Source: a virus
Lineage: Duplodnaviria > Caudoviricetes
Reading direction: 5' to 3' (one strand)
Length of the DNA stretch: 58,105 nt
Virus record (IMG/VR): IMGVR_UViG_3300037991_001062
Location: 1 to 58,105 of that record
The notes beneath the pieces are model-generated. The model searched no databases. It was not told the DNA's origin and saw nothing but the letters and a program-made list of their open reading frames with translations. The position numbers and the translations under genes were made by a program. How positions within the stretch are numbered: position 1 is the first letter of the stretch; each line of letters opens with the position of its first letter. Of the stretch, positions 30,201 through 48,700 are shown one piece after another.

Positions 30201-31895
30201 TCCTGCAGCTGCGTTAAGATTTTCATTACCATCAGGAACAGGAAGTTGTACTTGTGCTTGAGAGCTTATAGACTCTGCAGGAAAATGATGATGTCTAACT
30301 GGTGTATTATGTAATGAGTTGCCAGTATACACAGAATTACCATCTGCATCTACTGTCCATATTTGAAAGTCATTATTAGGATCATTAGCAACTGTAGGAT
30401 AATTTTCATTATCATTTTGCCAGTATCCCATACCATTAGAACCCGGCGCTGTAGAACCTTCTGTAGTTAGATGATACATTCTAGCTGTAAGTCCTGAAGC
30501 GTTATACGCCACATTAGGTCCTAAATAAGGTTGATCATCAGGATTATCTACATCATCATAAAAGTCTGTTTCTGAAGCACCATTCTGCATAAGAGTGTTT
30601 ACTGCAGCTCTTCCAGGGATATGATATGCCATAGATTCAGAACCATCTTTTAATACCCAAGTAATATAAAAAGCATAAACCTCATCTCTATCGTATCCTT
30701 TAAAAAAATAATTATCATATGCAGATCTACCAAACCCTTGATTATTATTTGTTGTTCTAAATAATCCGTCTACAGTTATACCTGCAAAGTCTCTTTGATG
30801 TGATGCATTAGCATTATCATTAGTACCTGCATTTGGGTCAAGTTGTACTGATTCTATTATAATACTATTTGCATACTTCTGATACCCTAAATCTATCTTA
30901 GTTCTTACAAGGTTACCAAGATATAATACATCATCTACTTGAGCTATTGTTTTTGCTTTTTTATAAGCTGCTCTAGGAACTTGTGCATCAGCTAGAGTAA
31001 ATGGTTCAGCAGTCTCATATCCTGTATACTGAACAGTCATTGTAGTACCAGTAATAGGTTTATCTGGAAGTTGAACAGCAGTTCTAACTCCTGATACCTG
31101 CTTTATAAATATAGGTCTAACTGCTGCATAGGAGACATCAATATGTCTAATATCCATAAGTATTTTCTTACCGCTACTAGTTCCTGCATCTGCGCCCATA
31201 TAACCATTAGCAGAATAATTTTCTGCTGCACCAAAAGGAGTATCTGCTAAACCTTCCGATACAGCATTAATATATATAGGATTACTTACATCCAAGACAT
31301 TTGTAGTAGCACCAGTTTCACTTACAAACTGTAATGTAAAATAGTATGTACCTACATTTAGTGTACCACCACTACTTACTTTATTAAGAATTACCTTTGG
31401 ATAAGATGCTATTTTTGGAAATATATCAAAAGTAACTTCTATATCTAAACCAGCTACAGGTACAGGAGGATTAGTAAGATTCATAAATCTAGGAGGATTG
31501 TTGTCATCCGTCCAATATACTGTTACATCATCTGTAGCATTTATTTTATATTCTCCTTCAATAGGAAATAATACATCAAAATTTAACTTATCGTTACATA
31601 CAGTATCATCAAATAGTACAGTATATGTCCCTAAGCCAGAAGTAGCAGAAGTCCATCTACCTATTCTAGAGCTGCCTAAATTATCAATAGTAAATATTAC
31701 AATATCATTATCATCTAGAACTATATACCCAACTACACTCTCATCGTTATTTCCAAGTTTTTGTTGTACATCCCCTTTCTCAGAAACAATACACATTTTC
31801 TTTATATCGATAACAGCATTTTTTGCATACCGATATGTTCCAGCAGGCTGATCTATTGGACTAGTGTCCCTATTTAATCCATTTACTCTCTTCAT
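27279..31895 (-). CDS. Tail stabilisation / muzzle-like protein (1538 aa)
   Basis: N-terminal GLNRDTSP..QP.GTYRYAKN, VYWTDDNNPPRFMN, LYLGN, GY.RDEVYAFYI.W and C-terminal WTISY...W.SFHDY, all resembling crAss-like stabilisation proteins. Syntenic between a ring gene and cargo genes. Confidence 0.75.
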   Translation of the reverse strand: MKRVNGLNRDTSPIDQPAGTYRYAKNAVIDIKKMCIVSEKGDVQQKLGNNDESVVGYIVLDDNDIVIFTIDNLGSSRIGRWTSATSGLGTYTVLFDDTVCNDKLNFDVLFPIEGEYKINATDDVTVYWTDDNNPPRFMNLTNPPVPVAGLDIEVTFDIFPKIASYPKVILNKVSSGGTLNVGTYYFTLQFVSETGATTNVLDVSNPIYINAVSEGLADTPFGAAENYSANGYMGADAGTSSGKKILMDIRHIDVSYAAVRPIFIKQVSGVRTAVQLPDKPITGTTMTVQYTGYETAEPFTLADAQVPRAAYKKAKTIAQVDDVLYLGNLVRTKIDLGYQKYANSIIIESVQLDPNAGTNDNANASHQRDFAGITVDGLFRTTNNNQGFGRSAYDNYFFKGYDRDEVYAFYITWVLKDGSESMAYHIPGRAAVNTLMQNGASETDFYDDVDNPDDQPYLGPNVAYNASGLTARMYHLTTEGSTAPGSNGMGYWQNDNENYPTVANDPNNDFQIWTVDADGNSVYTGNSLHNTPVRHHHFPAESISSQAQVQLPVPDGNENLNAAAGASCMGARADQGGGFIWDGAYTGMGYTTVYFNPMGFKAYNIPFPEEIRELVLGYKIYYANRSSENATVIDHGMISEPGRNNSDSNSIIIPMPTSTFSDVSFNTPGNKQTGNHPVFDGYHSLITGDSIEAANVFKGCRYHNLCDRSGGSASGYLDNGFHKGITVVADDDTGTFMGSSRATRLFIDWCRLRPSEYLAPYDYRAYTTGARLQNYSFFGSFGNYVVPLAGKSYLPAGGADNVTVPGSSVQNENGTQTIILNVYPIDRYLILSDNLNFNGLVDDANIYHVEEVHDAIPFDTVEPSFNAGGGAGWNAALDTRISSVFGNLYAIRDDVYNNFEEQNELVYTGHLYRTSGLVEAQIINPTAATAETVMGGDTFLGMVGITKMKMSNVVDVEAFGPEGGINQVGIHPGHGTSLYFGDDLNPIYDHATHLFPTSSRSHVAMRERDPEDKSSAFFPAVPFRSRLLQTGADTFYQRDYDFNDDYNAEGDIKLIIPYNYKDPISTLEDFPTRIIRSVKYNQSGLTDNFRVFKPGQFRDLPRHRGELWRLEAMRSLLIPHMERSLMLTRGKEELAVGAVAASLGSGDFFERDPSEVITTERGQGGTQSQWSGVVTTNGYFYVDVASKRCFLFTDKLEDITMGMFGWFQENMTQPLWEYALPIDYDKPTINIGATAGYDAQLDRIVLTYHYLAPSKDMIDIFNDYNYTFNRDTGTYSFEPKTLSQPDQKSIAITNLTYFTAKYWTISYYPALKAWGSFHDYGSIFYPYTNTKMYKLEDNVSLYAAANLQHQKGTPGLFTGSGGTAPFIFEFIDNAGPSDNKLFSSVNWTVDVEASEAYNDAVAATGSLLHNPGFTHIFVYNSEQMSREVPIVPFSGSYILGANTRRNERGWYFNNFRDDADLTNVAGATIEADNTSLQFNSDGMEITQNAGYLDVAKSFDTRKKFIDKYMGVRLIDRNTQRLNIISLYLTDTSKRKSYR

Positions 31896-34797: not shown

Positions 34798-35928
34798 TTA
34801 TATATTTGTTTGTAAATACCCTTCATATCCGCGCTCTTTACTCCATATATGTGCCTGTCCTGTTCTCTTTGCTTCATACCCCATCATCTTATGCCAAGCA
34901 TCGTTAGCACAGATAGAAGGTATAAATCTTACTTTTATTCCTCTATACTCATCAACCTGTTCCTTATGTTTATGTCCGCAGTGTACTTCTCTAAACTTAG
35001 ACTGAGCAAACAACATAGGCTGTTCTGTTGCCATTATCAGTGGCATCTCAGCAGGTTTTTCTTTATCTCCGTGTGTAAACATAATTAAGTTAACTCCGTA
35101 TTTATAATATTTTCTAGAGTCAAAGTTGTTATCAACATCAACTCTTTCATCATTTTTAAAGAATGCTCTTAGGTATTCACCTGCATAAAACATTCTCTCG
35201 TAGTCATGATTACCTTGTACAACAACCACATCTACAGGTGCAGCATTGGCTAAGTAGTTTATTGCTCTTACCATAAGATTACAATATCCTACAAATGTTT
35301 CTTGCCACTCTGCTGAATCTTGCTGAGGTGTACCTTTTGTGGTAGCACGGGAATACCCCTCAGAGTTCATACCATCATTACCTATTGGTAATAAGATTTT
35401 TTCTATGTTTAAGCCTTCTGCCTTAGACAATAAATCTTTTACAGTATTCATATACTCCTCCTCAGCTTCGTCAAGTGTCTGTCCAGTATACTTACCATAG
35501 TGAATATCTGGTAAGGAGATCTCATATACAACTGGGTCTTGAACAGTATTATAGTCTTTTTCAACCTTTGGGCTGTAGGATTCTAATAAAGCAATCATTT
35601 CTTCTTTTGCTGCTTTCATTATATTATCCTCTCCTTTGACCACTACAGAGAATCTATTGTCTCCTTGCATATTCTGCCAAAACTTTACAGACTTGACATC
35701 TGTTTCATTTATTCCATTTTCTTTTAAGAACGTTTTGAACTCACTTATCTCTGAAGTACTTACGTTGTCCAAATCAAAGTCAGATCCTTTTGCGTCTATC
35801 CTTGCTTCCGTCAATGCGTGTCTGCAAGTTTCCACGCTACAATTTAGCTTCTCTGATAACCTGGCTGCACCTTCTTTCAAGTAACCAGGCTTCTCTCTTA
35901 GAAAAGCTTTAATTTCATCTTTAGTCAT
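34798..35928 (-). CDS. Calcineurin-like metallophosphoesterase
   Basis: All five motifs are present: PDIHYG, GND, QGNHD, THGD and GHKH. Confidence 0.88.
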   Translation of the reverse strand: MTKDEIKAFLREKPGYLKEGAARLSEKLNCSVETCRHALTEARIDAKGSDFDLDNVSTSEISEFKTFLKENGINETDVKSVKFWQNMQGDNRFSVVVKGEDNIMKAAKEEMIALLESYSPKVEKDYNTVQDPVVYEISLPDIHYGKYTGQTLDEAEEEYMNTVKDLLSKAEGLNIEKILLPIGNDGMNSEGYSRATTKGTPQQDSAEWQETFVGYCNLMVRAINYLANAAPVDVVVVQGNHDYERMFYAGEYLRAFFKNDERVDVDNNFDSRKYYKYGVNLIMFTHGDKEKPAEMPLIMATEQPMLFAQSKFREVHCGHKHKEQVDEYRGIKVRFIPSICANDAWHKMMGYEAKRTGQAHIWSKERGYEGYLQTNI

Positions 35929-35942
35929 ATATCTAGGTTTAG

Positions 35943-36362
35943 TTAGTTTTTCTGTGTATCATTTTTCTTTGAGCTACCGCCGAAAAAGAAGTCAACAATT
36001 GTGTTAACTTTTGCACTCATGGCCCCAAAGATAGTAGAAATAAAACTAATTTCAAACTCTCCTAAATTTATATCTCCTAGAACAAAGTGATTAAACATCA
36101 CAAAACTAATACCAAAGTACGCAACTGTGAACAAAGTTGCTAACACTTTTTGTATGATAGCATCGTCTTTATACATGTCACGTGCAGACTTTCTATCTTC
36201 TACTTCTTTAGCAAAAGCTTCACGCTCTGCTTCAAGCATTATCTTTTGTAATTCTATCTTAGCCTGATCTCTTTCTTTATCAGTTGTAATTACTTTGTCT
36301 AATATTCCTTCGGCGTTGTCTAGAACCTTGCCAAACAGTCCGCCCATTACTTTTTGTATCAT
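35943..36362 (-). CDS. Putative holin (3TM/GTA holin-like)
   Basis: ILDKVITTDKERDQAK, DRKSAR, then two hydrophobic helices ending FFFGGS with a basic tail. Confidence 0.7.
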   Translation of the reverse strand: MIQKVMGGLFGKVLDNAEGILDKVITTDKERDQAKIELQKIMLEAEREAFAKEVEDRKSARDMYKDDAIIQKVLATLFTVAYFGISFVMFNHFVLGDINLGEFEISFISTIFGAMSAKVNTIVDFFFGGSSKKNDTQKN

Positions 36363-36710
36363 TTAATTCTCTGTTATAGTATCTGCTTCTATTAATAAAT
36401 CTACCTCTCCAGTATGTGCAGTAGCAAATAATCTTACTGATAGTGGCACTGGATTTGGTATATTAGCTCCTGTATATGCTGGCCCCTGTTTATAGCCATC
36501 CAGTTCTATTGTTACACCTACAGGTATATTTACTTGTGATAAAATCTTAACATCTACTAGTCCTGAACCAATACCAGTTTGCATTAACTGTAAAGTAAAT
36601 ATAGCATTATCACCTACTATGGTACTTGGGTTAGTTATATACATTTTATTAAATGAGCTTATACCTAAGTTATTAGCATTATTTGTATTTATTGTTCTAA
36701 GTATTAACAT
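36363..36710 (-). CDS. Hypothetical protein, predicted beta-rich (115 aa)
   Basis: ORF abuts both neighbours. No motif recognised. Confidence 0.6.
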   Translation of the reverse strand: MLILRTINTNNANNLGISSFNKMYITNPSTIVGDNAIFTLQLMQTGIGSGLVDVKILSQVNIPVGVTIELDGYKQGPAYTGANIPNPVPLSVRLFATAHTGEVDLLIEADTITEN

Positions 36711-36711
36711 A

Positions 36712-37755
36712 CTATATAGTAAATATTGGTGTTCCTATTATTATATTAAAGTTTCCTTGCATAGATACAGTTGAGCTACCTGTACTATTACACACTGCTG
36801 GCATAATAAGATCTCCTGCAGATAAACTAAAAGGAGTTCCAAGTACAGTATTAACTTTATATATCTTGCTATTAGAAGTACCTCCGTCATCATCACCAGC
36901 AGCAAAAAGCCTTTGAGTATATGTTGATGCATTACTTGTTCCTATATCAGGTGTACCTACAAATATAGCTACATCTCTAGGATTAGACTCACTACCGTTA
37001 TTTCTAAACGACCCACTAACTGCAACTAGCTTACAGGCATGTGGCACAAACCAACCTTGTTGTTGCAAATTACTAGCTAGTGACATAGTAACAGTACCAT
37101 CAATAGCTGTGTCTCTAGCTAAACCACTGTTTATAGTAAAGCTGTCAGAACCAAAACCTCCATTAGCTGCAGGTAACTCATAGTTCGTGCCAGTAAAACT
37201 ATTAGTGTTAACTTCCCAGTTTAGGTATTGATAAGCATATAAATCACTTGTAGGTATATTTGCTGCTACGATCTCACCTCTTATAGTTGCTGATGATTTG
37301 TTTTCAACATTGCTTAATCCCAAAGATGTTCTAGCTCCAGGAGCGTTAACTGCCCCAGTTCCACCATTTGCAATAGGTAAAAATCCACTAACATCTGTAG
37401 CTAAGTCAATAGCATTCCTAGTTATTTCTTGTCCTGATAAAGTTATATAATCTAAGCTTCCTGCTAATGTTACATTAGTAGAGTTATCAGTTCCTGCTGC
37501 ATCAACACCTAATGCCGTTCTAGCACTTGCTGCTGAGTTTGAGTTTGTACCTCCATTAGCTATAGGTAACACTCCTGTTACATCACTAGTTAAATCTGTT
37601 GTACCACCACTTACAGTGTTCTTTACTATCTTGTTGTTTGAGTCTAGGCCTAAGTTAGCACCACTAGCAATAGTACCCGTGCTTATATCTTCTAAATAAA
37701 CATCGTTTCTAAATCTAGCAATTAAATCTTGTATGTACTGACCTATAAACCTCAT
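36712..37755 (-). CDS. Tail fibre-like protein with LPIANGGT repeats
   Basis: Two copies of DL..DV.G.LPIANGGT.A..A..AR..LG, a typical fibre shaft repeat, followed by a beta-rich C-terminal domain. Confidence 0.75.
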   Translation of the reverse strand: MRFIGQYIQDLIARFRNDVYLEDISTGTIASGANLGLDSNNKIVKNTVSGGTTDLTSDVTGVLPIANGGTNSNSAASARTALGVDAAGTDNSTNVTLAGSLDYITLSGQEITRNAIDLATDVSGFLPIANGGTGAVNAPGARTSLGLSNVENKSSATIRGEIVAANIPTSDLYAYQYLNWEVNTNSFTGTNYELPAANGGFGSDSFTINSGLARDTAIDGTVTMSLASNLQQQGWFVPHACKLVAVSGSFRNNGSESNPRDVAIFVGTPDIGTSNASTYTQRLFAAGDDDGGTSNSKIYKVNTVLGTPFSLSAGDLIMPAVCNSTGSSTVSMQGNFNIIIGTPIFTI

Positions 37756-38222
37756 TAAGCAAAATCAATGTATTCTATTGTTACTTCTTCTCCTTGTTCT
37801 ATAGCCTTCGCAATAGCTGGATAAATCCTTTTATACGCATTAACGCTCTTACCAACGAACCCATCACGGAGAATAAGATTGTTTTCTTGACTGTCTCCAA
37901 CGATAAGACAACCAGCAGTATGCTCGTCAGTATTTCCAGTATGAATAAGAATATATTCAAAACCAGGTACATCAGTAACATGAAGCATACCACGGTGTAT
38001 ACCAGGATATTTCTTATCGTATCTCGCATGAAAACCTCCTTCTTTTCTTAGTTCTATTTTGTATGTTCCTGCAGGTATTCTTGTTTCACCTTTTACTTTT
38101 AAGACTCTATGCTCATCCTCTAAGGTATAACACAAGAAATGTTTTTTTATATCACTTACTTCAAATAATGCACCATGCGTACAGTCTGACTGTGAACTAA
38201 ATCTTAATACTTCTAATTTCAT
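37755..38222 (-). CDS. DUF5675-like protein (L,D-transpeptidase-like fold, putative endolysin)
   Basis: CYTLED, ETRIPAGTY and ILIHTGNTDEHTAGCLIVG (His...Cys catalytic-type motif). Lies near the holin. Confidence 0.8.
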   Translation of the reverse strand: MKLEVLRFSSQSDCTHGALFEVSDIKKHFLCYTLEDEHRVLKVKGETRIPAGTYKIELRKEGGFHARYDKKYPGIHRGMLHVTDVPGFEYILIHTGNTDEHTAGCLIVGDSQENNLILRDGFVGKSVNAYKRIYPAIAKAIEQGEEVTIEYIDFA

Positions 38223-40042
38223 TCTATAATTAGTTTTGTTGTTATAGTTAAGTTTTCCTTAGAAATCTTAATTAGATATATACCTTTGTTAAGTTTTATT
38301 CTGTTTGTTTTATCTTCTAATATTAATTTACCAATAATATTGTATACCTGTAAATCTACCTTAGATACAAAGTTTACTACACCTGTTGATGGGTTTGGGT
38401 ATGGAAGTACACCTAATCTTTCAAACATAGTAACATCTGTAGGACCACTCCAACCTTCTTCGCAATAGTTATATAACTCATAACAAGTATTATCCCATGT
38501 ATTATCACAGCAATATTGGTCAACTTGTATCACCCACTCAAAACATGAGTTAGGTATATAGTACGGTACACTTGCAGCACATCCTGATTCATAGTAGCAA
38601 CTACTATCAGGTATGTTTGCATCTACATTATAATTAACAGCAGTTATATCAGTACAACCAGCTAATGGTAATATACAAGAACCATTATCTACATTTGCTA
38701 AAGGATCATAGTTAAGTGCTAAACTATCCATACAACCATTTACAACATCTATACAACTACCATTATCTGTGTTGCATGTATCGCAATAATTAAATGCTGC
38801 AGGATCTATACATCCAAAGATAAGTGGTATACAGCTACCATCATCTACATTAGCATTAGGATTATAGTTAAATGCACCATCATCCATACATCCTTCTACA
38901 ACTTCTATACAAGATCCTTCAAGCTCTACATTTGCCTCAGGATTATAATTCAAGGCTGTAGAATCCATACAACCAAGAACGATTGGTGTTAAACACGAGC
39001 CGTCATCAAAATCTGCTTCTTCATTATACTCGATGTAGCTTGGATTCATGCATCCAGCAATATAGTAACAGCTTCCGTCGTCTGTGTTTACACTATCATT
39101 ATAATTAAGTGCTGTACTATCTATACAGCCATATGTTCTATCTATACAATTGTTTCCACAATTAGGCTCACCAAATATGTAAACAAAAGGTGGTATTGGA
39201 TTTACAAATCCTCCTTCAATATCTATAGCTACATACTCTTCAGAATATATACTATATCCACATTGAACTGCAGTAAAATCTGATTGCTGAGTTATATTAA
39301 ACTGTACTCTTACAGGTTCCGATATACTTAACTCAAATGTAAATGTAGTGTCAAACCCTTCTTCTAGGGTAAATTGACCTATAAAATTATCACCTTGATA
39401 AACGTTTAAATATGAACCAGCCCAACCATTGCCAGCTAAATCTGTTAACTCTAATGTGTGCATGCAGCTGTCTATAGACTCATCTATGTTTGCCATAGGG
39501 TCATAGTTAAATGCTAGCGAATCAGTACAACCAAATAGTTTTGGAGTAAAACACATACCTGTATCTACTGTTGCTTCTGGTAAAAACTCTAAAAAGCTAT
39601 CATTCATACAGCCATATACGGGCGGTGGTGGTGCACAGTCTTCTAATGTAAATCCATGAAAAGCAGCATAACCAAAGTCTGCAGAGTCTGGACTTACTAA
39701 AGTATCACCACAATGAACTATATAGTATGATCCATCTTGACCTCCCCACAAACTACCAGCCATACCATCACCATATTGATCAGCTATATTAAATAAGTAA
39801 TCACCATTAGGTATGCATATTTGTACTACTTGAGGCTGATAATCTACTATATCAACATACGGTCCACCAGTAGCAATAGTGTCTTCTAAAGGCGTAATAA
39901 TAGCCCAAGAAGTTTCTTCTGGATATTGGTCAGGATTAATAATTATATTTACATACGTTCCATTAGGACATTGTGCATTTGCAACACATGATACTATCAT
40001 TGCAAAAAATAAAACTATATATATGTATGCTATTTTTTTCAT
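38219..40042 (-). CDS. Secreted Cys-repeat protein with a type IX secretion (T9SS) type-A C-terminal sorting domain
   Basis: True start is likely the ATG at 40042 (MKKIAYIYIVLFFAMIVSCVANA|Q signal peptide), 1 nt after the upstream stop. Nine GCxD..A.NY...A..DDGSC-like repeats. C-terminus YPNPSTG...VYNIIGK...KGIYLIKI...TTKLIIE. Confidence 0.85.
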   Translation of the reverse strand: MKKIAYIYIVLFFAMIVSCVANAQCPNGTYVNIIINPDQYPEETSWAIITPLEDTIATGGPYVDIVDYQPQVVQICIPNGDYLFNIADQYGDGMAGSLWGGQDGSYYIVHCGDTLVSPDSADFGYAAFHGFTLEDCAPPPPVYGCMNDSFLEFLPEATVDTGMCFTPKLFGCTDSLAFNYDPMANIDESIDSCMHTLELTDLAGNGWAGSYLNVYQGDNFIGQFTLEEGFDTTFTFELSISEPVRVQFNITQQSDFTAVQCGYSIYSEEYVAIDIEGGFVNPIPPFVYIFGEPNCGNNCIDRTYGCIDSTALNYNDSVNTDDGSCYYIAGCMNPSYIEYNEEADFDDGSCLTPIVLGCMDSTALNYNPEANVELEGSCIEVVEGCMDDGAFNYNPNANVDDGSCIPLIFGCIDPAAFNYCDTCNTDNGSCIDVVNGCMDSLALNYDPLANVDNGSCILPLAGCTDITAVNYNVDANIPDSSCYYESGCAASVPYYIPNSCFEWVIQVDQYCCDNTWDNTCYELYNYCEEGWSGPTDVTMFERLGVLPYPNPSTGVVNFVSKVDLQVYNIIGKLILEDKTNRIKLNKGIYLIKISKENLTITTKLIIE

Positions 40043-40043
40043 A

Positions 40044-40607
40044 TTATTGTATTGTAAGTTGAATACTACCAAAGACTCTACTGCCGTCTGTACTATTACA
40101 TTTTATATTTATTACTTGACCTCTTGATTTAGGCAGTGATTGAACTCTATTAATGCTACCTGTTGTACTTTGCAACCTTGCATAAGGTGAGTCAATACTC
40201 CAATGAAATTTTGTTTTTTCTGTAGCGTCACTTGGTTGTACAACCGCCGCAACATCTATAGTACCACCATTATCTACAAGCACTGCACCCTTTGGTATTG
40301 TTAAATCTAAACGAGTAAGTTTTTTAAAACCATGATTATCTACTTGTTCTATAGAAAGTAATAGTTTTGCTTTTTCTTTATCTTCGTTTTCAAAATTTCT
40401 AGTAGCTAATACTTTAGTTTTTTCACTTGTGCTTAGAGCATTTTTTTGTGTACCTGTTTTTACTACAACCTCATATACATCATTTGCAGCATCAATAGGA
40501 TAAGGTATATCAATACTAGTGCTACCTCCATAGCCTAATGCAGTATTAGCTTTTGCTATAACTGCGTTGCACTCTGCTTGTGTTCCTGTAAAAATTTCTC
40601 TAGCCAT
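40044..40607 (-). CDS. Protein with C-terminal Ig-like (Big_2-like) domain
   Basis: AVVQPSDATEKTKFHWSIDS...INIKCNSTDGS.V.GSIQLTIQ resembles bacterial Ig group 2. Confidence 0.6.
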   Translation of the reverse strand: MAREIFTGTQAECNAVIAKANTALGYGGSTSIDIPYPIDAANDVYEVVVKTGTQKNALSTSEKTKVLATRNFENEDKEKAKLLLSIEQVDNHGFKKLTRLDLTIPKGAVLVDNGGTIDVAAVVQPSDATEKTKFHWSIDSPYARLQSTTGSINRVQSLPKSRGQVINIKCNSTDGSRVFGSIQLTIQ

Positions 40608-41398
40608 TATGTCATATTATGTCTTGCCTTTAAATCGGCTATTACTTTTGTTAATTCTGTTCCATCTATGTCTCTGTTCCATACGCACATTTCATCCATA
40701 TAACCATCTATAAATTGTGTAGTACTATTAAAACCTACTGTAGTACCATTTAACACAGCATCACTAGTATTAGTTAAATTTACAACACTTTTTGCTGTAG
40801 TTAAGCTACCACCATCTGCAACAGTTTCTACTTTAAATGTTGTATCGCCTGCAGTAGTACCCCCACCATATCTATAAGATATTATAGTTTTTTGATTATT
40901 TACAAGTTTACCTGTGGCGCTAGTTAAAGATACTCTAGTTGTTGTATCACCAAATCCATTTATAACAGCTTGCCAAGTTTGATTTGTATTAAAAGATGAT
41001 GTTCCCCATGAAATAGTATCTTGTATAACGCCAGATGATGGATCATTTAAATATCTACTAATTCTGTTAACTTGTGCTACAGGATGTTCAACAACTACAA
41101 TAACAGTATATGCACTAGAGTTTGGTATTGGCCCATTAGAAATATTCATAAAACTACTACTAACATCACCCCAATCTACTCTACCACTAGCCTCAACAGT
41201 AGGGCGTTTATTAGTTGCTATTGTATTAGTTAAAGTGCGATTATTACCACTGCTATCACCCCATTCTTCTAAATCGTTTCCATCAAGGGTATGTAGCGTA
41301 TTAAACTTATACCAAGCTTGTAAACCTGATATGTCTTTAATACTAAACCCTCCAGTATAAGGGGAACTGTATACTCCTAATCCTAATCCTAATCCCAT
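40607..41398 (-). CDS. LamG / concanavalin A-like domain protein with N-terminal GLGLGL motif (virion-associated lectin-like)
   Basis: MGLGLGLG start, LQAWYKF...WGDSSGNN, and C-terminal GYMDEMCVWNRDI...L.ARH. Confidence 0.7.
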   Translation of the reverse strand: MGLGLGLGVYSSPYTGGFSIKDISGLQAWYKFNTLHTLDGNDLEEWGDSSGNNRTLTNTIATNKRPTVEASGRVDWGDVSSSFMNISNGPIPNSSAYTVIVVVEHPVAQVNRISRYLNDPSSGVIQDTISWGTSSFNTNQTWQAVINGFGDTTTRVSLTSATGKLVNNQKTIISYRYGGGTTAGDTTFKVETVADGGSLTTAKSVVNLTNTSDAVLNGTTVGFNSTTQFIDGYMDEMCVWNRDIDGTELTKVIADLKARHNMT

Positions 41399-41399
41399 A

Positions 41400-41738
41400 T
41401 TAAAATTTACTCATTATTAATTCATCAATATAATTCTGTATCTCTTTTCTTGTAGCCACCATTTCAAAACTAAGATCTGCTTGAAATCTTTTAACTTCTT
41501 CTCCTTCATCAAACACTATAATAGTAGGTACAATAGCAATAGCATATTCTTTTTGTATATCTTTATCATCTATACTTAAACTTTTTTTACCAGCGTCTGA
41601 TAATTTATCAAACCACTCAACATCATTAGCTTCGTTCCAGCCTGCATTAAAGTGTATCACTGTGATCTGTGAAAAAGCAGTATACGAGACCGTACAAAAA
41701 AATAATAATAATAGATGTTTGTATAAAACTTTCCACAT
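41400..41738 (-). CDS. Secreted thioredoxin-fold protein lacking CxxC
   Basis: Signal peptide ending TAFS|Q. VIHFNAGWNEAN aligns with Trx V.F.A.WC..C. The cis-Pro motif IAIVPTIIVF..GEEVKRF is retained. Confidence 0.72.
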   Translation of the reverse strand: MWKVLYKHLLLLFFCTVSYTAFSQITVIHFNAGWNEANDVEWFDKLSDAGKKSLSIDDKDIQKEYAIAIVPTIIVFDEGEEVKRFQADLSFEMVATRKEIQNYIDELIMSKF

Positions 41739-42016
41739 TATTGATATATTTTTTGCTCTATCTTTTCAAGCGTTTCCTTTATTTCTTTAACATCTTCCTG
41801 CGTATTCATAATAGTATTACGAATCATTTGATCTTTCATATCAAACTCCATACGTGTAACTTCTGGATCTGGTGGAGCTGGTAATTCTTTTGCTTCAGCT
41901 ATCTCACCTTTCAGTGTAAACCACATACCTGTCATAGTTACTAGTACAAAACCTAAGGATATAATTGTTTCTAAGCTTAATTTAATTTTAGTGTCTTTAC
42001 CTATTTCAGTTGCCAT
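41738..42016 (-). CDS. Single-pass membrane protein with Pro-rich linker and C-terminal coiled coil
   Basis: Hydrophobic IISLGFVLVTMTGMWFTL, then LPAPPDP, then the heptad-rich QEDVKEIKETLEKIEQKIY. Confidence 0.7.
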   Translation of the reverse strand: MATEIGKDTKIKLSLETIISLGFVLVTMTGMWFTLKGEIAEAKELPAPPDPEVTRMEFDMKDQMIRNTIMNTQEDVKEIKETLEKIEQKIYQ

Positions 42017-42018
42017 TT

Positions 42019-43050
42019 TTAAAATATAACGTAGTTAATTCCTAATTTAAAGTCGTACCATTCTTTGTTCCAATACTTATTGTATTTACCTTCAATGAAA
42101 CAACCTAGGTGCTTAGTCGCTTTTAGTCCAAATATCAGTCCTCCTGAGTAATCATACCATTGTTCTCCATCATTGAAGTTGTGATATGAGTATATGCCAC
42201 CATCATCATAATGGTAAGGCATTAGGTTACCCCAGGAATGTAACCAAAAGTTTTTCTTATAGTGATAGAAATCAAAACCTATAACTAATGAGTGTTGCCA
42301 CTGATTAGCTAGTTCATTTCTTTTCTTCTCTACATAGTTTTCTAGAACCTGTGGTATAATTACTTGATTCCATACCTCAGCACTAGTTGCTACAATAGCA
42401 CCATCTGGTGCTCTGTATTCTGATTCATATACATCTATACTATAACCTTCTTCAATAGCTAGTTGTGTATAGTGTATATCACCAGTAGTCATTGTCCACT
42501 CTTCTAGCGGATCATAACCATATGGTTCTGCTAGTCTTTGTACGGCACCTATATTGAATGATAGCTTTTTACTACCATTCAATCTTAGTCTATGTGTTCC
42601 TTCAAAGTACTCTATGTCTGCAAAACCATCTTTAATATATTCTGCTTTTGTAAACCACTTAGATCTAGCATATCTTATAAAGTGATGCTGATCAAGATAC
42701 TCTACACCTTCTTGTCTTCTATATTCTATCTCAAATAGATACTCAAAAGGGTTTCTTCCTATACTGGCAGCATCACTAAATGAAGACTCTGTACCATCTT
42801 TAAATGGTGATGAGCCTTCATACTGAAACCTTTGTATCTTACGAATACCCATAGATAATGAGTAGTCATAAGGAGTAATGATAGTATCATATAGCAAGGT
42901 ACTGCCATCTACAGAGTATATCTCCTGATCAGATAGTGATGTACCACCATTAGCAGCCACATAGAATGTAGAAAACTTTATAGCCTTCTTAAACTGTGCA
43001 GAACTAATTAGTGAACACAGTAAAAATAATATTAAAAATTTTATTCTCAT
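42019..43050 (-). CDS. Predicted outer-membrane beta-barrel protein
   Basis: Signal peptide MRIKFLILFLLCSLISSA|Q, aromatic-rich alternating strands, and C-terminal YDFKLGINYVIF ending in Phe (BAM beta-signal-like). Confidence 0.7.
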   Translation of the reverse strand: MRIKFLILFLLCSLISSAQFKKAIKFSTFYVAANGGTSLSDQEIYSVDGSTLLYDTIITPYDYSLSMGIRKIQRFQYEGSSPFKDGTESSFSDAASIGRNPFEYLFEIEYRRQEGVEYLDQHHFIRYARSKWFTKAEYIKDGFADIEYFEGTHRLRLNGSKKLSFNIGAVQRLAEPYGYDPLEEWTMTTGDIHYTQLAIEEGYSIDVYESEYRAPDGAIVATSAEVWNQVIIPQVLENYVEKKRNELANQWQHSLVIGFDFYHYKKNFWLHSWGNLMPYHYDDGGIYSYHNFNDGEQWYDYSGGLIFGLKATKHLGCFIEGKYNKYWNKEWYDFKLGINYVIF

Positions 43051-43370
43051 TATGAAGCAGCTACAGTTACATCTCCGTCAGCATATGCTAAAACAGATCC
43101 ACTATCTAATTCAATACTTGTAAAGCTTCCATAAATAGTAGCTCCTTTTGGAATAGTAAAATTTCTAGTAATAGCTTGTAAAACTCCATTACCAGTATTA
43201 TTTTCTAATATATTTGTACTACACTCAGATACATCTACCACAGCATCTTCTAATGCCGTTACAGCATAGAAAGGTCCTGTATGTTCTACTTGATCTTGTA
43301 TGTATACAACTCTGTTGGGTCTACCATTTATAGCCTTTAATAATTTTTCTTGATTGTTACGAATATCCAT
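43050..43370 (-). CDS. Hypothetical beta-rich phage protein (106 aa)
   Basis: TAATG overlap with the barrel gene. IPKGATIYGSFTSIELDSGSVLAY resembles small virion spike-base-like proteins. Confidence 0.6.
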   Translation of the reverse strand: MDIRNNQEKLLKAINGRPNRVVYIQDQVEHTGPFYAVTALEDAVVDVSECSTNILENNTGNGVLQAITRNFTIPKGATIYGSFTSIELDSGSVLAYADGDVTVAAS

Positions 43371-43387
43371 ATTATTAATTTTTAATA

Positions 43388-43774
43388 TTATTGATCTGTT
43401 CCAAATACACCATACTCTAGCATAGTGCCAGTTGTGGTAGCATATACTTTGTAAGTCTTATCAGCATTGTTTGGTAAAAAAGCCCAATCTCCACCTGCTA
43501 GCTTAGCTATGATAGGATCTCCTGTAGACGTATCGTCAATTACCCAAAGAAAATCTGAAGCAGTAGTATCTAAATTTTTAAGATATAAATACATAGGTGC
43601 TGCAAAATCATCTGCGGTATAAATTAAGTTAGCAGTCCCTGCATTAGTGCCAGTTATTTTTACAGTTTTAACTCCACCTCCAGTTATAGTTATAGGCTTA
43701 GTTACAGCTAATGAAAGATTGCTAGTACCAAGATCACTTGATGATAGTGTTACTTTTGCATTTAATGTTGCCAT
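43388..43774 (-). CDS. Hypothetical virion-associated protein (128 aa)
   Basis: MATLNAKVTLSS..., YLYLKN and LAGGDWAFLP. Beta-rich and located in the structural block. Confidence 0.55.
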   Translation of the reverse strand: MATLNAKVTLSSSDLGTSNLSLAVTKPITITGGGVKTVKITGTNAGTANLIYTADDFAAPMYLYLKNLDTTASDFLWVIDDTSTGDPIIAKLAGGDWAFLPNNADKTYKVYATTTGTMLEYGVFGTDQ

Positions 43775-43786
43775 GTTTATTTAATT

Positions 43787-44197
43787 TTAATTGTTCACTA
43801 TTTTAATTATAGCACTTAACTGTTTAGCAGTAATATCGTGAGGCAAATTCTTTTCAGACATAGTAACTAGATCTAGTTCAACTGTCTCCTCTAAAATATC
43901 ATTAACTTCTTCCAATTGTGCTTTTCTTTTATCTATAAGTTCTTTATTCTCTTTTTCAAGCTTCTTAATTAATTTTTCAGACTCTTCAGACTTTTCAATC
44001 TTGTCAGCCTCTTGTAATAACTTTTCAAACTCTGGAGAAGGTTTTGAAGCCTCATCAATATGCTTTAATTCATTCCTAAGCTTTTCTATATTCTTAGAAA
44101 CTGCTACCGCAAATTTTACTCCTTTCAAATCTTGAACTGCATACAGTCCATGTAATGTTTCTAACATTTCTTTGTTAGTTGCTTTAATCTTTGTCAT
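43787..44197 (-). CDS. Charged helical protein, possible fibre assembly chaperone
   Basis: Lys/Glu-rich coiled coil directly downstream of a fibre gene. The pattern KFAVAVSKN...L.E.VE.....I resembles DUF1617-like proteins. Confidence 0.5.
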   Translation of the reverse strand: MTKIKATNKEMLETLHGLYAVQDLKGVKFAVAVSKNIEKLRNELKHIDEASKPSPEFEKLLQEADKIEKSEESEKLIKKLEKENKELIDKRKAQLEEVNDILEETVELDLVTMSEKNLPHDITAKQLSAIIKIVNN

Positions 44198-44231
44198 TGT
44201 CTATTTGGTTTTAAAATTTAATAATTAATTA

Positions 44232-45698
44232 TTATACACTATTGTTGACAATCAAAAAGTGTATTTTTCTTGCATTAGTATCTGTTGCAGAATCTCCAAC
44301 ATTTTTTAATACTATATCAAAATGTCCGTTTGATTTAGCTCCTACCTGCGCTATTATGACAGAATCATCTGTACTACTTGATATTGTTACAGATTCTACT
44401 GTAAGTAATATTAATGAATCTATCTGAGCTGCAGCATTAGTTACTCTAAATTCTGCCTCAGCTCCTGACGCTAATGACACAGCTGCTAAAGTAATAATAC
44501 CTGCCATGGCATTAGACGAAACACCTGTACTATGATTAGTTAACTGGGTAACATCTCCCCTATTAGTATACACTATACCTTTGGTAGCTGTGTGAAATAT
44601 TGCATTACCGTACTTTATAGTTATATCCAAGTTTTCATCAGCTACTAAAGCCTCAGCATTGGCTCCTGTAGAAATACTGCTATTAGTATCATTTACAGGT
44701 TGAAGTGATACAGAACCAGAAACCCCGCCACCTTCTTTTGCTCCACCTTGAATAGCTATACTACCTCCATTACCACCACCTCCAGTACTAGAACCAGCCT
44801 TAATGACTATACTACCTCCAGCTCCATTTGAACTGCTACCTCCTATAAGTTGTGTTAAACTTCCTGCTCCTGATGTAACAGCTTTTGTTGTAATATCAGT
44901 AGCACCTACTAAAGTAATTCCACCTTTTACATTGAATGCAGAATCAAAAGTATTACCACCAGCAGTAGTATCTCCTGTAAAAAGATTACCAGAGGCATCA
45001 AACTGAATACCTTTTGTAGCAGAACCGTCTCCATTGATTCTACCATTAGTACCCATATCTATATTATTATTATTTACATCTAGATTAGAAGTAAGTGCAG
45101 CATTTACAGCAGCAACTTTCCATGCTAGTCCAGTAGCTGTAGAAGAGTCTGCTGTAAGTACATAATCATTTGTACCAACTGCAAGAGCTTGAGGAACAGA
45201 ACCAGTTCCAGCTAGAAGCATACCTTTAGTAGCAAAGGCTATAGATCCTAGTGATGCTGTATCTCTTCCATATAATAAACTATTTCCTGTAACTGACGCA
45301 ACTCCTGTACCCCCGTTTGCTACAGGTAATATAGTTGCTCCCACATTTGATGTTAAATTTACTGTGCTTAAAAATCCAGAAGTACTATTATTACAGTTAC
45401 TAAGATCTAAGCTAGCTTCTACTAAACTTAATAATACATGACCATCTGTATGTAGTGTCGAAGTTAGTGCTCCACTTGATGTACTTGTAGCTGCAATTTT
45501 TCTTAAATTTAATTGAGTTGTATTAGTTAAGCCGTTGTGAGATTTTACACCTGCACTACCTGTATCACTAATAGTAGGAAATATAGAATTTAATTGAAAT
45601 CTAAAGTCTGATGAAGTAGCAATATTTTGTACATACACATAATGACTATTTGTAGTAGTACTCTTTGATAAATTTGCTAGATTTTTTATTTGTGCCAT
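44232..45698 (-). CDS. Tail/head fibre-like protein (Gly/Ser/Thr-rich)
   Basis: LPVANGGTG, KGMLLAG...LAVGTNDYVLTADS..ATGLAW and GG.I.I..G repeats, all typical of trimeric fibres. Confidence 0.75.
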   Translation of the reverse strand: MAQIKNLANLSKSTTTNSHYVYVQNIATSSDFRFQLNSIFPTISDTGSAGVKSHNGLTNTTQLNLRKIAATSTSSGALTSTLHTDGHVLLSLVEASLDLSNCNNSTSGFLSTVNLTSNVGATILPVANGGTGVASVTGNSLLYGRDTASLGSIAFATKGMLLAGTGSVPQALAVGTNDYVLTADSSTATGLAWKVAAVNAALTSNLDVNNNNIDMGTNGRINGDGSATKGIQFDASGNLFTGDTTAGGNTFDSAFNVKGGITLVGATDITTKAVTSGAGSLTQLIGGSSSNGAGGSIVIKAGSSTGGGGNGGSIAIQGGAKEGGGVSGSVSLQPVNDTNSSISTGANAEALVADENLDITIKYGNAIFHTATKGIVYTNRGDVTQLTNHSTGVSSNAMAGIITLAAVSLASGAEAEFRVTNAAAQIDSLILLTVESVTISSSTDDSVIIAQVGAKSNGHFDIVLKNVGDSATDTNARKIHFLIVNNSV

Positions 45699-45718: not shown

Positions 45719-48700
45719 TTAATCTGAGACGTCTAAAGATTCTCCTCCTCCTAAACTTATTCCTCCAGGTCCACCTAAATTTAATATTGGAGTTCCTGTA
45801 TAAGTAGTAGTCCCAGGCATATACGTTACATCTTGGAATGCTCCATAAGGAGATTTAAGTATACCACTTCTCTCTCTACAATCCTCACAGTATGTTAAAA
45901 CTATTTTTATAAACTCTCTTAATCTTGCGTTTGAAGCGTCTTCACCATCAAATAAACATGCAGCCGCTTTCTTTCTTAAAAGATCGTTTATCATAGATAA
46001 ATGTAAATATCTATCCTCGTCTACTGTCTTACCTGTTAACATAGCACTAAAGTATTTTTCACCCTTATACTGCAAGCAGTGTTGCAAATATACTAAAAAT
46101 GCCTCAAAGTCTGGTATCTCTGGTGGTACTACTGGTCCTTCAGGTTCTCCATCAACTAAACATGTACCATTATCAATACTAGCTAATGGATTATAATTTG
46201 ATGCTTCAGGGTCTGTACAACCAAATATTACTATATACTGGCATAGTGTATTATCTGCTAATATGTATGGAGGATTAACTTCACTCACATAATTTATAGC
46301 ATCAGGATCTGTACACACAAATTCTGGATATTGACAACTTCCATTATCAACATTAGCGTTTTCATTAAAGTTTATAGCTGTAGGATCAATACAACCAGGT
46401 ATCTCCCCACACTCTCCATATATATTAAATGTAGCCTGAGGATTATAATTTTCTGCAGTTTGAATCATACATCCACATATTTCAACATCATTCTCTGTTA
46501 AATTATATGTATAAGTTAGTGGACACTCTGTAGCATCTGCAGATCCAATCAAAGGTATTAAGTTATCAAAAGTATCGTTAAATGTATTTAAACTAATATA
46601 AAAAGTAAAATTAAAAGTATACTCTCCAAATGCATAAGGGCTTCCAGTTATAGCTGCTATCTCTTCTAGTGTAAAAGTCATACCAGTGCTACCAAGTACA
46701 TCTCCTGTATCTGGGATGATAGAAAAGTTTGTACCAGACATTCCTGTTAGATAATGATCAAATATTTGACCAGTATTAGTACTAACACTAACTGAGAATA
46801 TCATGCCTGGAGTTCCTGAAACTTGAATATCAAAGTATCCTGAGCAGTTTACTGTCTCTCCTTCTGGAGATGTATATAGTTCAGTACCTATAAAATTAAC
46901 AGATCCGTTAGTTGCAAAGTCATCACAATTAGTTGATGTAGTACATAAATCATTATTAGCAAATTGTGTAATAGGATCTAATACTTCTACACAATTAGTA
47001 ATTCCTATACCGCAATCATTACATACACCCTCTTGTAAAACAAACGATCCATTTGTTACACACCCACCAAGTGCAAAATTAGCTAGCATCAATCCTGAAG
47101 ATCTAGCACTGTCTGATATTGGATATACATAAAAGAAATATCCATTATGACTTGTAGTATTTACTGTCCATGGATGATCTAAACTAAAAGTTTGAACATT
47201 ATCATTAGCAGAAGTGTTTAAAGCAGTAATAGTATTTGTAAATATTACATTAGCGTTATAAGGATCTGCACTAATAATATCACCTATATATTCAGTAAAT
47301 GCAGCATCAGCTTGAGCGCCGTTTGTTACAGTAGCTGGATCAAATACTACTATACCAAAATTTTGAGTATCTATCATAGATGCTGCCGGTTGATTCAATG
47401 TTAAGTATAAAGTAACATTATAGCCATCAGGAATAAGATCTCCAGCTGCTAATTGTAAATCTGCGTATTCGTTAGGAGTAAGAGCTACATTATTAGAATG
47501 TGCTACACTAATAAAACTACTTCCAAGTCCATTAGCATTATTACAATATACACATAAACTATTATCAGTAATGTTAGCATCAGGATTATAATTTAGAGCA
47601 GTATTATCAGTACATCCTGTAATATCTGTACTAGTTACTTCTACATAAAAGTTGTTTTGTACTGAACACAATGTGTTTACCTCAGCCCAACTTGCTGAAG
47701 CAATTTCTACAGCTACTATATTTATTTGAGTAATACCGTCTTCTTCAACAGGAAATGCCAGATCTACTATACCAATTGTAAGCTCTCCTCCAGTAGAAGC
47801 TTCTTCAAACGATCCGTCGTTAACTGTTATAGTTACATTAGGCAGAACCTCTTGAGATACTGGATTATAAGCTTGAAAAGCATTAGGGCCTGTTTGAAAT
47901 ATTCTTAGGTTAAAATTAGATACATCTCCACCACTTACAACTTCTATATATACCATTAGTGAAGTTGCAGTAGAACCATTGTAAAAAGGATTATTAGTAC
48001 CCTCATAAGGATCTAATTCTGCATTATCTCCAAAGGCTATTGAAAAAGTTGTTTCTACTAACATAGAACTTCCTGATGACCCTTGTATATTGAAGCTCTG
48101 GTTAGTATCTGATTCATATATATAAAACTCTGGAAAAGTACAAGACAGATCATCAACGTTAGCTTCAGGATTATAGTTACAAGCTGCAACATGTGTACAA
48201 CCTAAAACCTCAGGATCTCCAACTGGGTCAGTTACTTGATTATCCTGATATGAATAATAGATGGCTTGAAAACCCATAGTTTCTACATAGTTATCACTAT
48301 TAAATGGATCTAACTTTCCAGCATTTGGATTTGCTGCAACACCACCTTCTTGACTGTGCGTGCCATATTTATATGCTAGCATTCCATACTCACTAGGAGT
48401 ATTGAATACTAAAACTTTTTCAGCAGATCTTTTCCACCATCCTGCAGGGTTAAAGTATTCATCTACTGCAACGGCTGGTGCTCCTGCTACTGGTATTGCA
48501 AATCCTGAGCCATCTGCATCTTCAACACCCCAATTATAACCTGAAAAAAATAGATTTTGCAGTGGATCAGAATCATCTATGTTAGCACTAGGTACTGTGC
48601 TGTAAAGTGTTCCTACTGGAGAAGCAGTACTTCCTTCAAATATATCCACAGCAAATGGCCCTGTAAAAGCATCATGATAACCTTGAATATTACTACCACC

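Follow-up and report, generated by a model that had tools for sequence, protein, structure and literature searches.

How do phages without spanins breach the outer membrane of their hosts? The question is open, and the lysis of crAss-like and marine flavobacterial phages is almost unstudied: passages of PMC6139136 count 91 of 677 phages of Gram-negative hosts without a spanin, Bacteroides and Croceibacter phages among them, and passages of PMC8776804 indicate that most North Sea flavophages carry no annotated spanin. It is raised here by a linear virus record from IMG/VR (IMGVR_UViG_3300037991_001062; 58,105 bp, completeness estimated at 67%), hereafter the window, which carries in its late block three adjacent genes for a bitopic inner-membrane protein (the anchor), a secreted thioredoxin-like protein and a predicted outer-membrane beta-barrel. 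This trio, and not the run of seven genes that an initial annotation had taken for a single envelope-remodelling cassette, is the conserved unit, and it is found in the lysis region of two marine Bacteroidota-type phage lineages. We hypothesize, with a probability of about 0.5, that the trio disrupts the outer membrane as a spanin-like module of new architecture, a function that we infer from gene context. It is in any case a concrete, widespread and testable candidate for the breach of the outer membrane; if the hypothesis is true, phage lysis has a new architecture in which the phage builds its own outer-membrane barrel for a late-infection function, and thousands of marine viral contigs can be better annotated, while a three-part device for exclusion or sensing would still be new if one of the rival readings held. 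The members of the trio are as follows (aa, amino acids).

41738-42016, minus strand: anchor, a bitopic inner-membrane protein of 92 aa with a short N-terminus and a single transmembrane span, followed by a linker rich in Pro (ELPAPPDPE) and, at the C-terminus, a coiled coil; core member 1
41400-41738, minus strand: secreted thioredoxin-fold protein of 112 aa that lacks CxxC, keeps the cis-Pro and ends in an invariant Phe; core member 2
42019-43050, minus strand: predicted outer-membrane beta-barrel protein of 343 aa, with a signal peptide ending in SSA-Q and a C-terminal Phe; core member 3

The barrel matches no Pfam (E<=0.1), PHROG or NCBIfam family, and its nature is suggested by predicted structure. 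An AlphaFold2 (AF2) model from a 24-sequence alignment has 13 strands at moderate confidence (predicted local distance difference test, pLDDT, 67). Foldseek returned 45 matches for it at E<=1e-3, all of them outer-membrane barrels among the matches listed, with TM-scores of only 0.16-0.30, and VIA-align against 48,161 chains placed 19 at Z>=8, headed by CymA (Z 11.7, with 213 residues aligned at a root-mean-square deviation of 5.2), PelBC (11.3) and OmpG (11.2). Together with the signal peptide and the C-terminal aromatic residue (Phe in 63/74 barrels), the closed barrel fold of the model gives the predicted protein the attributes of an outer-membrane beta-barrel. Membership of the Ail/Lom family was considered and rejected, as there is no Pfam family at E<=0.1 and as 343 aa and 13 modelled strands contrast with the 8 strands and ~200 aa of that family.

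The barrel family is widespread. A clustered protein collection holds 3484 homologues, with a Pfam domain in 0/120 among the matches listed, and at E<=0.001 an exhaustive profile search yielded 441 cluster representatives; fragments are common among the 150 matches listed, and the search, whose listed matches were not scanned against Pfam, established no bridge to a named family of outer-membrane proteins. The only name met in the family is 'hypothetical protein', also in a cluster look-up of ten homologues sourced from NCBI; the nearest clusters in the ESM Atlas are virus-only and unnamed, and those with a name that come closest, at 0.92-0.93, are barrel families and serve as leads only. Searches of 50,697 GenBank phage records (blastn, tblastn) gave no match to the region, to three versions of the barrel or to the thioredoxin-like protein, and therefore no cultured phage can serve as a model. 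A scan of 185,579 species genomes found 8 loci only, all on contigs of metagenome-assembled genomes (MAGs) of scattered taxa (Parvibaculum, Nitrosopelagicus, Rickettsiales, Maricaulis, Winogradskyella and others); these contigs are probably mis-binned phage DNA, and a recent host origin was therefore rejected.

The anchor has a single hydrophobic span by hydropathy, at about residues 13-35. In the tail of the window protein 8/10 heptad a/d positions are hydrophobic, and across 27 homologues the heptad mean is 0.69, against 0.38 +/- 0.10 for shuffled sequences, of which 0.7% reach the observed mean. An N-terminal transmembrane span followed by a coiled coil, predicted to be periplasmic, is the layout of an i-spanin. 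Homologues of the anchor in the second lineage described below are 32-39% identical to it.

The start of the thioredoxin-like gene and the end of the anchor gene have base 41738 in common. As a single sequence, the thioredoxin-like protein falls below the Pfam cut-offs (E 0.013-0.096); a profile of 27 sequences, however, matched thioredoxins in the PDB at E 3.1e-6, with 127 sequences at E<=1 and nearly all of them thioredoxins among the 60 matches listed, and one distant homologue (L088) exceeds the Pfam Thioredoxin cut-off by itself (27.3 against 23.5 bits). The canonical thioredoxin active-site motif is WCGPC; the aligned position reads WNEAN in this protein, and a CxxC motif was present in 0/27 of the aligned homologues. 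In the same alignment neither the cis-Pro (P71) nor the last residue (F112) varies. By its sequence the protein thus has the thioredoxin fold and does not belong to the redox-active class. The terminal Phe is kept in 60/60 homologues of the window's lineage and 69/69 of the second, usually as K/R/Q-F; such an invariant C-terminal aromatic on a soluble periplasmic protein is reminiscent of the beta-signals of outer-membrane proteins or of PDZ ligands. The initial annotation had described these three genes as coding for a predicted outer-membrane beta-barrel, a transmembrane plus coiled-coil protein and a secreted thioredoxin fold, and each description is borne out: the barrel by the AF2 model with its Foldseek and VIA-align matches, the anchor by hydropathy and heptad score, and the thioredoxin fold, which lacks CxxC, by the profile match and the signal-peptide rule below.

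Four further genes place the trio in its phage and in its lysis region.

53502-54911, minus strand: major capsid protein (phrog_11589, E 9.8e-86)
38219-40042, minus strand: type A cargo of the T9SS (type IX secretion system), 607 aa from the ATG at 40042, with a signal peptide, two beta-sandwich domains, a Cys-repeat stalk, a Cys-rich knob and a C-terminal domain (CTD)
37755-38222, minus strand: DUF5675 protein of 155 aa without a signal peptide (PF18925 at 100.3 bits, cut-off 26.7, E 7.6e-29; weak Tlde1 match; phrog_1501)
35943-36362, minus strand: holin-like protein of 139 aa (phrog_3427, holin, E 1.9e-4; PF11351 at E 0.0017, below cut-off)

The capsid protein is ~30% identical to capsids of crAss-like phages (tblastn; 143 records matched, every one at <60%), and a Bacteroidota host is inferred from this likeness.

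Export was scored with a heuristic signal-peptide rule, a regular expression for a hydrophobic 10-mer followed by [ASGCT]-Q; Gln at +1 agrees with the 'Q-rule' of Bacteroidetes for substrates of signal peptidase I. In the window's lineage the rule picks out 66/68 distinct barrels, 55/55 thioredoxin-like proteins and 45/45 T9SS proteins, and 0/30 DUF5675 proteins; in the second lineage it picks out 63/72 barrels and 67/69 thioredoxin-like proteins, against 5/485 other open reading frames (ORFs) of at least 100 aa. The earlier proposal of three Sec signal peptides is therefore supported by the heuristic, which places them in the barrel, the thioredoxin-like protein and the T9SS cargo, where they are near-universal in homologues. 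The window's sole real genes with a transmembrane span or a signal peptide are those for the holin, the T9SS cargo and the three members of the trio.

At least 102 relatives of the barrel are found in viral contigs of the window's crAss-like lineage, and 79 loci were kept, many of them cut by contig ends. With the window proteins as tblastn queries, the barrel was found in all 79, the anchor in 64, the thioredoxin-like protein in 61, the T9SS cargo in 63 (mostly at full length), DUF5675 in 36 and the holin in 18. Where at least 7 kb are present on both sides (31 loci), the anchor is no more than 7 kb away from the barrel in 28/31, the thioredoxin-like protein in 28/31 and the T9SS cargo in 29/31. 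Two gene orders occur in this lineage: barrel, anchor, thioredoxin-like, an optional insert and T9SS cargo; or anchor, thioredoxin-like, T9SS cargo and barrel. A lysin, nearly always DUF5675, is present in 40/79 loci and lies within 1.5 kb downstream of the core in 30/79, with at least 600 nt of downstream sequence available in 66 loci.

The most distant relatives of the barrel (31-35% identity; loci L075-L079, and L088 from a MAG) belong to another kind of phage, which has Terminase_3 and the portal phrog_33693, and they have the order tail fibre, anchor, thioredoxin-like, barrel, endolysin and holin; the endolysin is Amidase_2 in L075 and Peptidase_M15_3 in L077, L079 and L088. A barrel profile of this second lineage retrieved at least 549 relatives from viral contigs, of which the best 80 loci were kept, mostly on contigs of ~30 kb. 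The phages themselves are of roughly 30 kb (three that were checked, 33-35 kb), and their barrels are 31-47% identical. The trio is complete in 69/80 loci, most of the remaining 11 being truncated where the contig ends beside it. A lysin flanks the trio directly in 52/80 loci (72 of the 80 have a downstream ORF) and lies within two ORFs in 57/80, and a holin-like gene lies within three ORFs in 48/80. Among 122 distinct flanking ORFs, roughly half of them upstream, Pfam recognizes 44 Peptidase_M15_3 and 2 Amidase_2 proteins, and PHROGs, applied to a sample of 32, recognize more lysins and holins. Most often the genes follow the order upstream ORF, anchor, thioredoxin-like, barrel, lysin and holin; the gap from trio to lysin has a median of 0.5 nt, with an overlap in 26/52, and the window's holin is of the same family (phrog_3427) as the holins that follow the endolysin here. 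While the lysin family varies (M15_3, Amidase_2, DUF5675), the trio is constant. It thus has the position of spanins in a lysis cassette, beside endolysin and holin, if more loosely in the window's lineage. Of the seven genes, those of the trio co-occur across two unrelated lineages, joined in the crAss-like one by the T9SS cargo, and the 'LamG' and 'Ig-like' genes do not share this conservation; the single seven-gene cassette is not upheld, with those two genes rare and unsecreted, the cargo in one lineage only and DUF5675 cytoplasmic.

A small secreted glycine-rich protein (phrog_26616, labelled 'lipoprotein') is encoded between the thioredoxin-like and barrel genes of some loci (L135:4435-4806, L113:4792-5010, L163:4699-5001; also G001 19612-19992), and may be an optional fourth member of the module.

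To look for ordinary spanins, ORFs of at least 25 aa in every frame were screened for a lipobox over a region reaching 1.5 kb upstream and 2.5 kb downstream of the trio. A lipobox ORF was found near the trio in only 6/80 second-lineage loci, and none was embedded in the anchor gene. In two genomes of that lineage (92% and 94% complete; 33.3 and 35.4 kb), a lipobox was found in 0/418 and 1/402 ORF starts, the single one being implausible, and their only exported proteins are the trio, the holin and, in one of them, a small glycine-rich protein. In the window the lipobox expression matches the T9SS signal peptide alone, by chance. The trio itself has no o-spanin lipoprotein, and because this is lacking we do not file it as a spanin.

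Of the three roles that the initial annotation had suggested, a non-canonical apparatus for outer-membrane lysis (anchor plus barrel) is the best fit, as the genes stand next to endolysin and holin in two lineages; it applies to only three of the seven genes. According to the spanin-like reading, the anchor, the thioredoxin-like protein and the barrel would be exported late in infection and would form a tether through the peptidoglycan, from the inner membrane by way of the thioredoxin-like protein, a periplasmic adaptor presumably incapable of redox chemistry, to the barrel. The holin would then release the endolysin, which is DUF5675 in the window and Peptidase_M15_3 or Amidase_2 in its relatives, and, with the wall cut, the complex would break or open the outer membrane, as spanins do in proteobacterial phages. 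Prediction of a complex of barrel (residues 20-343), anchor (36-92) and thioredoxin-like protein (24-112) gave a score of 0.00, uninformative either way. More tentatively, and less likely than not, the trio could be a third, so far unrecognised class of phage machinery for outer-membrane disruption, a 'barrel spanin', in abundant spanin-less marine Bacteroidota phages; the terminal Phe of the thioredoxin-like protein could then be a beta-signal-like handle on the barrel or on the beta-barrel assembly machinery (BAM), and in crAss-like phages the exported T9SS partner would link lysis with the giant SprA translocon of the host or with the cell surface.

Several observations weigh against a spanin-like role. 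The N-in, C-out orientation of the anchor is suggested by a weak charge bias, and its periplasmic part is short (~55 aa). Barrel assembly, being slow and BAM-dependent, is an odd choice for a lysis effector. In the window DUF5675 is ~3.2 kb and the holin 5 kb away from the trio, and the T9SS, LamG-like, Ig-like and fibre genes intervene; across the crAss-like lineage the lysin abuts the core in only 8/79 loci, and 10/31 loci with full flanks have no recognisable lysin. Adjacency in the second lineage is not unique to lysis genes, the gap to the upstream gene, often a tail-fibre gene, having a median of 1 nt. Both the signal-peptide calls and the lipobox search use crude regular expressions. 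One second-lineage locus, finally, has a true lipobox protein (L166:7840-8262; …LASC…) with a Pro-rich C-terminal tail, directly after an M15 endolysin and beside the trio, and this lipoprotein may be a real spanin (unimolecular or o-spanin) that coexists with the trio, the single case to speak against a replacement of spanins by the trio.

The T9SS cargo bears on the alternatives. The ORF list begins its gene at a TTG at 40072, while the ATG at 40042 yields the signal peptide (MKK...) common to its homologues. The sorting domain exceeds the cut-offs of both PF18962 (36.7 bits against 27) and TIGR04183 (37.8 against 23), in agreement with the initial annotation of a T9SS cargo, and the CTD aligns to solved T9SS CTDs such as 8glj_D (E 0.0057); with an N-terminal Sec signal peptide by the heuristic rule, the sequence has what is expected of a type A cargo. 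Residues 24-300 were modelled by AF2 at pLDDT 78, and these N-terminal domains gave 0 Foldseek matches at E<=1e-3 and a best VIA-align Z of 6.7, within noise. An enzymatic role is unsupported, with no specific fold match for them, and the cargo looks, from its model, like a non-enzymatic surface binder. Its stalk consists of ~37-aa Cys repeats whose number differs among homologues, and which recur in a 1324-aa late protein (45719-49693; 47% identity over 110 aa, E 1e-21) that is probably a virion protein. The pattern of the repeat, GC.D..A.NYN..A..DDGSC, is in no Pfam family, and its variable number is as in an extensible stalk. The crAss-like lineage conserves the cargo and the second lacks it (0/80 loci with a homologue); it is therefore an addition to the trio specific to the former and not the purpose of the trio.

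Other explanations draw on much of the same evidence. The trio usually stands directly after tail or fibre genes, as llp and lom also do, and the barrel (with the T9SS protein in crAss-like phages) might occupy or conceal the receptor of the phage, both on the infected cell and on debris, as lambda Lom or T5 Llp do, protecting cell and progeny through superinfection exclusion or receptor masking; the stalk that the cargo has in common with the 1324-aa late protein and its non-enzymatic beta-sandwich heads would suit such a role. Precedent comes from 1,603 barrel outer-membrane proteins in 1,303 huge phages, for which passages of bioRxiv 10.64898/2026.10.24.761521 favour Lom-like interference at the level of the receptor, citing work in which Lom binds LamB and blocks superinfection (a word search of that preprint finds spanin, T9SS and thioredoxin unmentioned), and passages of PMC7468147 propose superinfection roles for phage T9SS cargo. 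We nevertheless consider masking unlikely. To mask a receptor, an outer-membrane protein can do without a coiled-coil partner in the inner membrane and without an adaptor in the periplasm, yet the three genes nearly always co-occur, and they do so in the late operon beside lysin and holin; exclusion genes are typically sporadic, whereas the trio is near-universal in two lineages and takes up ~5% of the coding space in small, lytic-looking genomes of ~33 kb.

Rather than disrupting the outer membrane, the trio might control the timing of lysis, as a trans-envelope sensor or antiholin system that relays a periplasmic or surface signal (for example superinfection) to the holin, in the manner of lysis inhibition by RI and T in T4. 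The lysis-cassette context is identical under this account, a reach from outer to inner membrane would suit signalling, and a single-span protein with a periplasmic domain and a small secreted partner are reminiscent of the T4 holin T and antiholin RI. It is decidedly improbable in our judgement: the cytoplasmic part of the anchor has only ~16 residues, nothing in the trio resembles RI, RIII or T, regulators, in contrast to the trio, tend to be dispensable and of patchy occurrence, and the genomes would still be without any function for outer-membrane disruption. Equally hard to credit is a role in surface display, in which the barrel and its partners would anchor or export the T9SS cargo, as PorV-, PorQ- or PorP-like proteins, for adhesion or against grazing, in line with the envelope remodelling of the initial annotation. 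T9SS cargo does depend on partner barrels, and the cargo gene, near the barrel in almost every crAss-like locus with full flanks (29/31 within 7 kb), is sometimes directly between the thioredoxin-like and barrel genes; the trio, however, is present without cargo in 80/80 second-lineage loci, which makes the cargo an add-on that does not explain the trio. Nor does the barrel have a Pfam match (E<=0.1) to PorP/SprF, PorV or any other outer-membrane protein family; structure searches give generic barrels only, and PorV-like FadL folds are not among the top matches (FadL at Z 7.6 and rank 37).

The spanin-like reading can also be set against known systems. Like the trio, the two-component spanins (lambda Rz/Rz1, T4 PseT.3/PseT.2) lie beside endolysin and holin in tight or overlapping genes, combine a bitopic coiled-coil inner-membrane subunit with an outer-membrane subunit, and could span the periplasm. 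The outer-membrane subunit of the trio would be a 343-aa beta-barrel and not a lipoprotein of ~40-60 aa, the trio has an obligatory third subunit, soluble and of thioredoxin fold, and its i-spanin-like protein is shorter (92 aa) and Cys-free; there is no sequence similarity between the two systems, and the role of the trio is a predicted one. Lambda Lom and the barrels of huge phages (passages of bioRxiv 10.64898/2026.10.24.761521) resemble the trio barrel in being phage-encoded and Sec-exported, with genes that stand among those for the tail or other late functions. Lom, of the Ail/Lom family, has 8 strands and is encoded by a single-gene moron, whereas the trio barrel, with ~12-14 predicted strands, is in no Pfam family and is always accompanied by two partner genes, next to the lysis genes, in phages of ~30-130 kb.

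One earlier report describes T9SS cargo encoded by a phage, in variable islands of the cryoconite 'Cryophage' (passages of PMC7468147); it likewise combines a Sec signal peptide with a type A C-terminal sorting domain, presumably for export by the host T9SS, but consists of variable island genes with enzyme or PA14 domains, while the window cargo is lineage-conserved, seemingly non-enzymatic and inside the trio and lysis region. Disruptin (phiKT gp28; bioRxiv 10.1101/515445) would share with the trio, under the spanin-like reading, that the outer membrane is disrupted by other means in a spanin-less phage; it is a single cationic peptide, in contrast to an exported three-protein set. Judged by titles, starts of abstracts and passages, no paper was found on a barrel, a thioredoxin-like protein and an anchor together in a phage lysis cassette. 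The suggestion that the system has no characterised equivalent thus holds for the literature, so judged, and for GenBank phages, the parts with precedent being phage T9SS cargo and phage barrel outer-membrane proteins.

Two genes between the thioredoxin-like and T9SS genes of the window complete the run of seven.

40607-41398, minus strand: variable insert (labelled 'LamG'), 263 aa, without a signal peptide, N-terminus MGLGLGLG (phrog_10356, virion structural protein, E 2.4e-5)
40044-40607, minus strand: variable insert (labelled 'Ig-like'), 187 aa, without a signal peptide (phrog_41, major tail protein, E 0.0055)

Neither label could be confirmed: there is no Pfam match at E<=0.1 and one chance-level PDB row for each (E 0.47 and 0.81), which leaves only the weak PHROG matches. 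In tblastn searches of the 79 crAss-like loci, the LamG-like gene was found in 2/79 and the Ig-like gene in 1/79, with the N-terminal ~70 aa of the Ig-like protein recurring in 2 more ORFs of the slot. The slot that they occupy is empty in 29/46 loci with both bordering genes and filled in 17/46, mostly by divergent genes that begin M-x-LGLGLG and have no signal peptide; by phmmer, 4 slot ORFs are related to the LamG-like protein and 3 to the Ig-like protein. The LamG-like and Ig-like genes are thus variable, non-exported inserts, and the LamG-like gene probably codes for a virion or accessory protein outside the conserved module. The M-x-LGLGLG start (window 40607-41398; L002, L017, L024, L044, L046 and others) may be an attachment motif shared by virion accessory proteins that are exchangeable.

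DUF5675, described earlier as a cell-wall enzyme, stands as a member of PF18925; as to the enzyme, it is likely, from its sequence, a candidate cytoplasmic endolysin with a C82 or L,D-transpeptidase-like fold. Passages of bioRxiv 10.64898/2026.04.11.717860 group DUF5675 structurally with C82 (L,D-transpeptidase-like) peptidases among lysin candidates. A strongly hydrophobic 76-aa ORF in another frame within this gene (37799-38029, minus strand) may be due to chance in AT-rich DNA or be an embedded membrane protein. Homologues of the holin-like protein match phrog_3427 at E 6e-20 to 7e-29, well beyond the window protein itself.

Nearly all window genes are on the minus strand and form a single long late block. 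The seven ORFs of the initial annotation lie where it had placed them, with successive junctions, from the barrel gene to the DUF5675 gene, of +2, -1, +1, -1, +1 and -4 nt. The flanks are equally tight, the gene at 43050-43370 having one base in common with the barrel gene and the fibre gene at 36712-37755 likewise with DUF5675, and the packing therefore fails to delimit a cassette. A chimeric host insertion, which that annotation had named as a case to check, was ruled out: GC is even over the window (0.32-0.38) and without a break at the region, the gene order recurs on independent contigs, and most gene junctions are bridged by near-identical contigs from runs of three studies. Metatranscriptomic contigs (run X20) cover parts of 35900-44300, and one of 190 nt, with one mismatch, spans the junction of anchor and barrel genes; these were not taken as evidence of expression, since DNA carry-over is possible in the RNA library and contigs give no expression level.

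Giant late ORFs lie downstream of the lysis region (8281-22128, 4615 aa; 3507-8279, 1590 aa; 27279-31895, 1538 aa). They are of a kind known from crAss-like phages, and the 1538-aa one alone has a PHROG match (virion structural protein). One further gene of the late block lies directly downstream of the holin.

34798-35928: metallophosphoesterase or DNA-repair-exonuclease-like gene (phrog_704, E 6e-59)

This gene and the holin co-occur in related loci.

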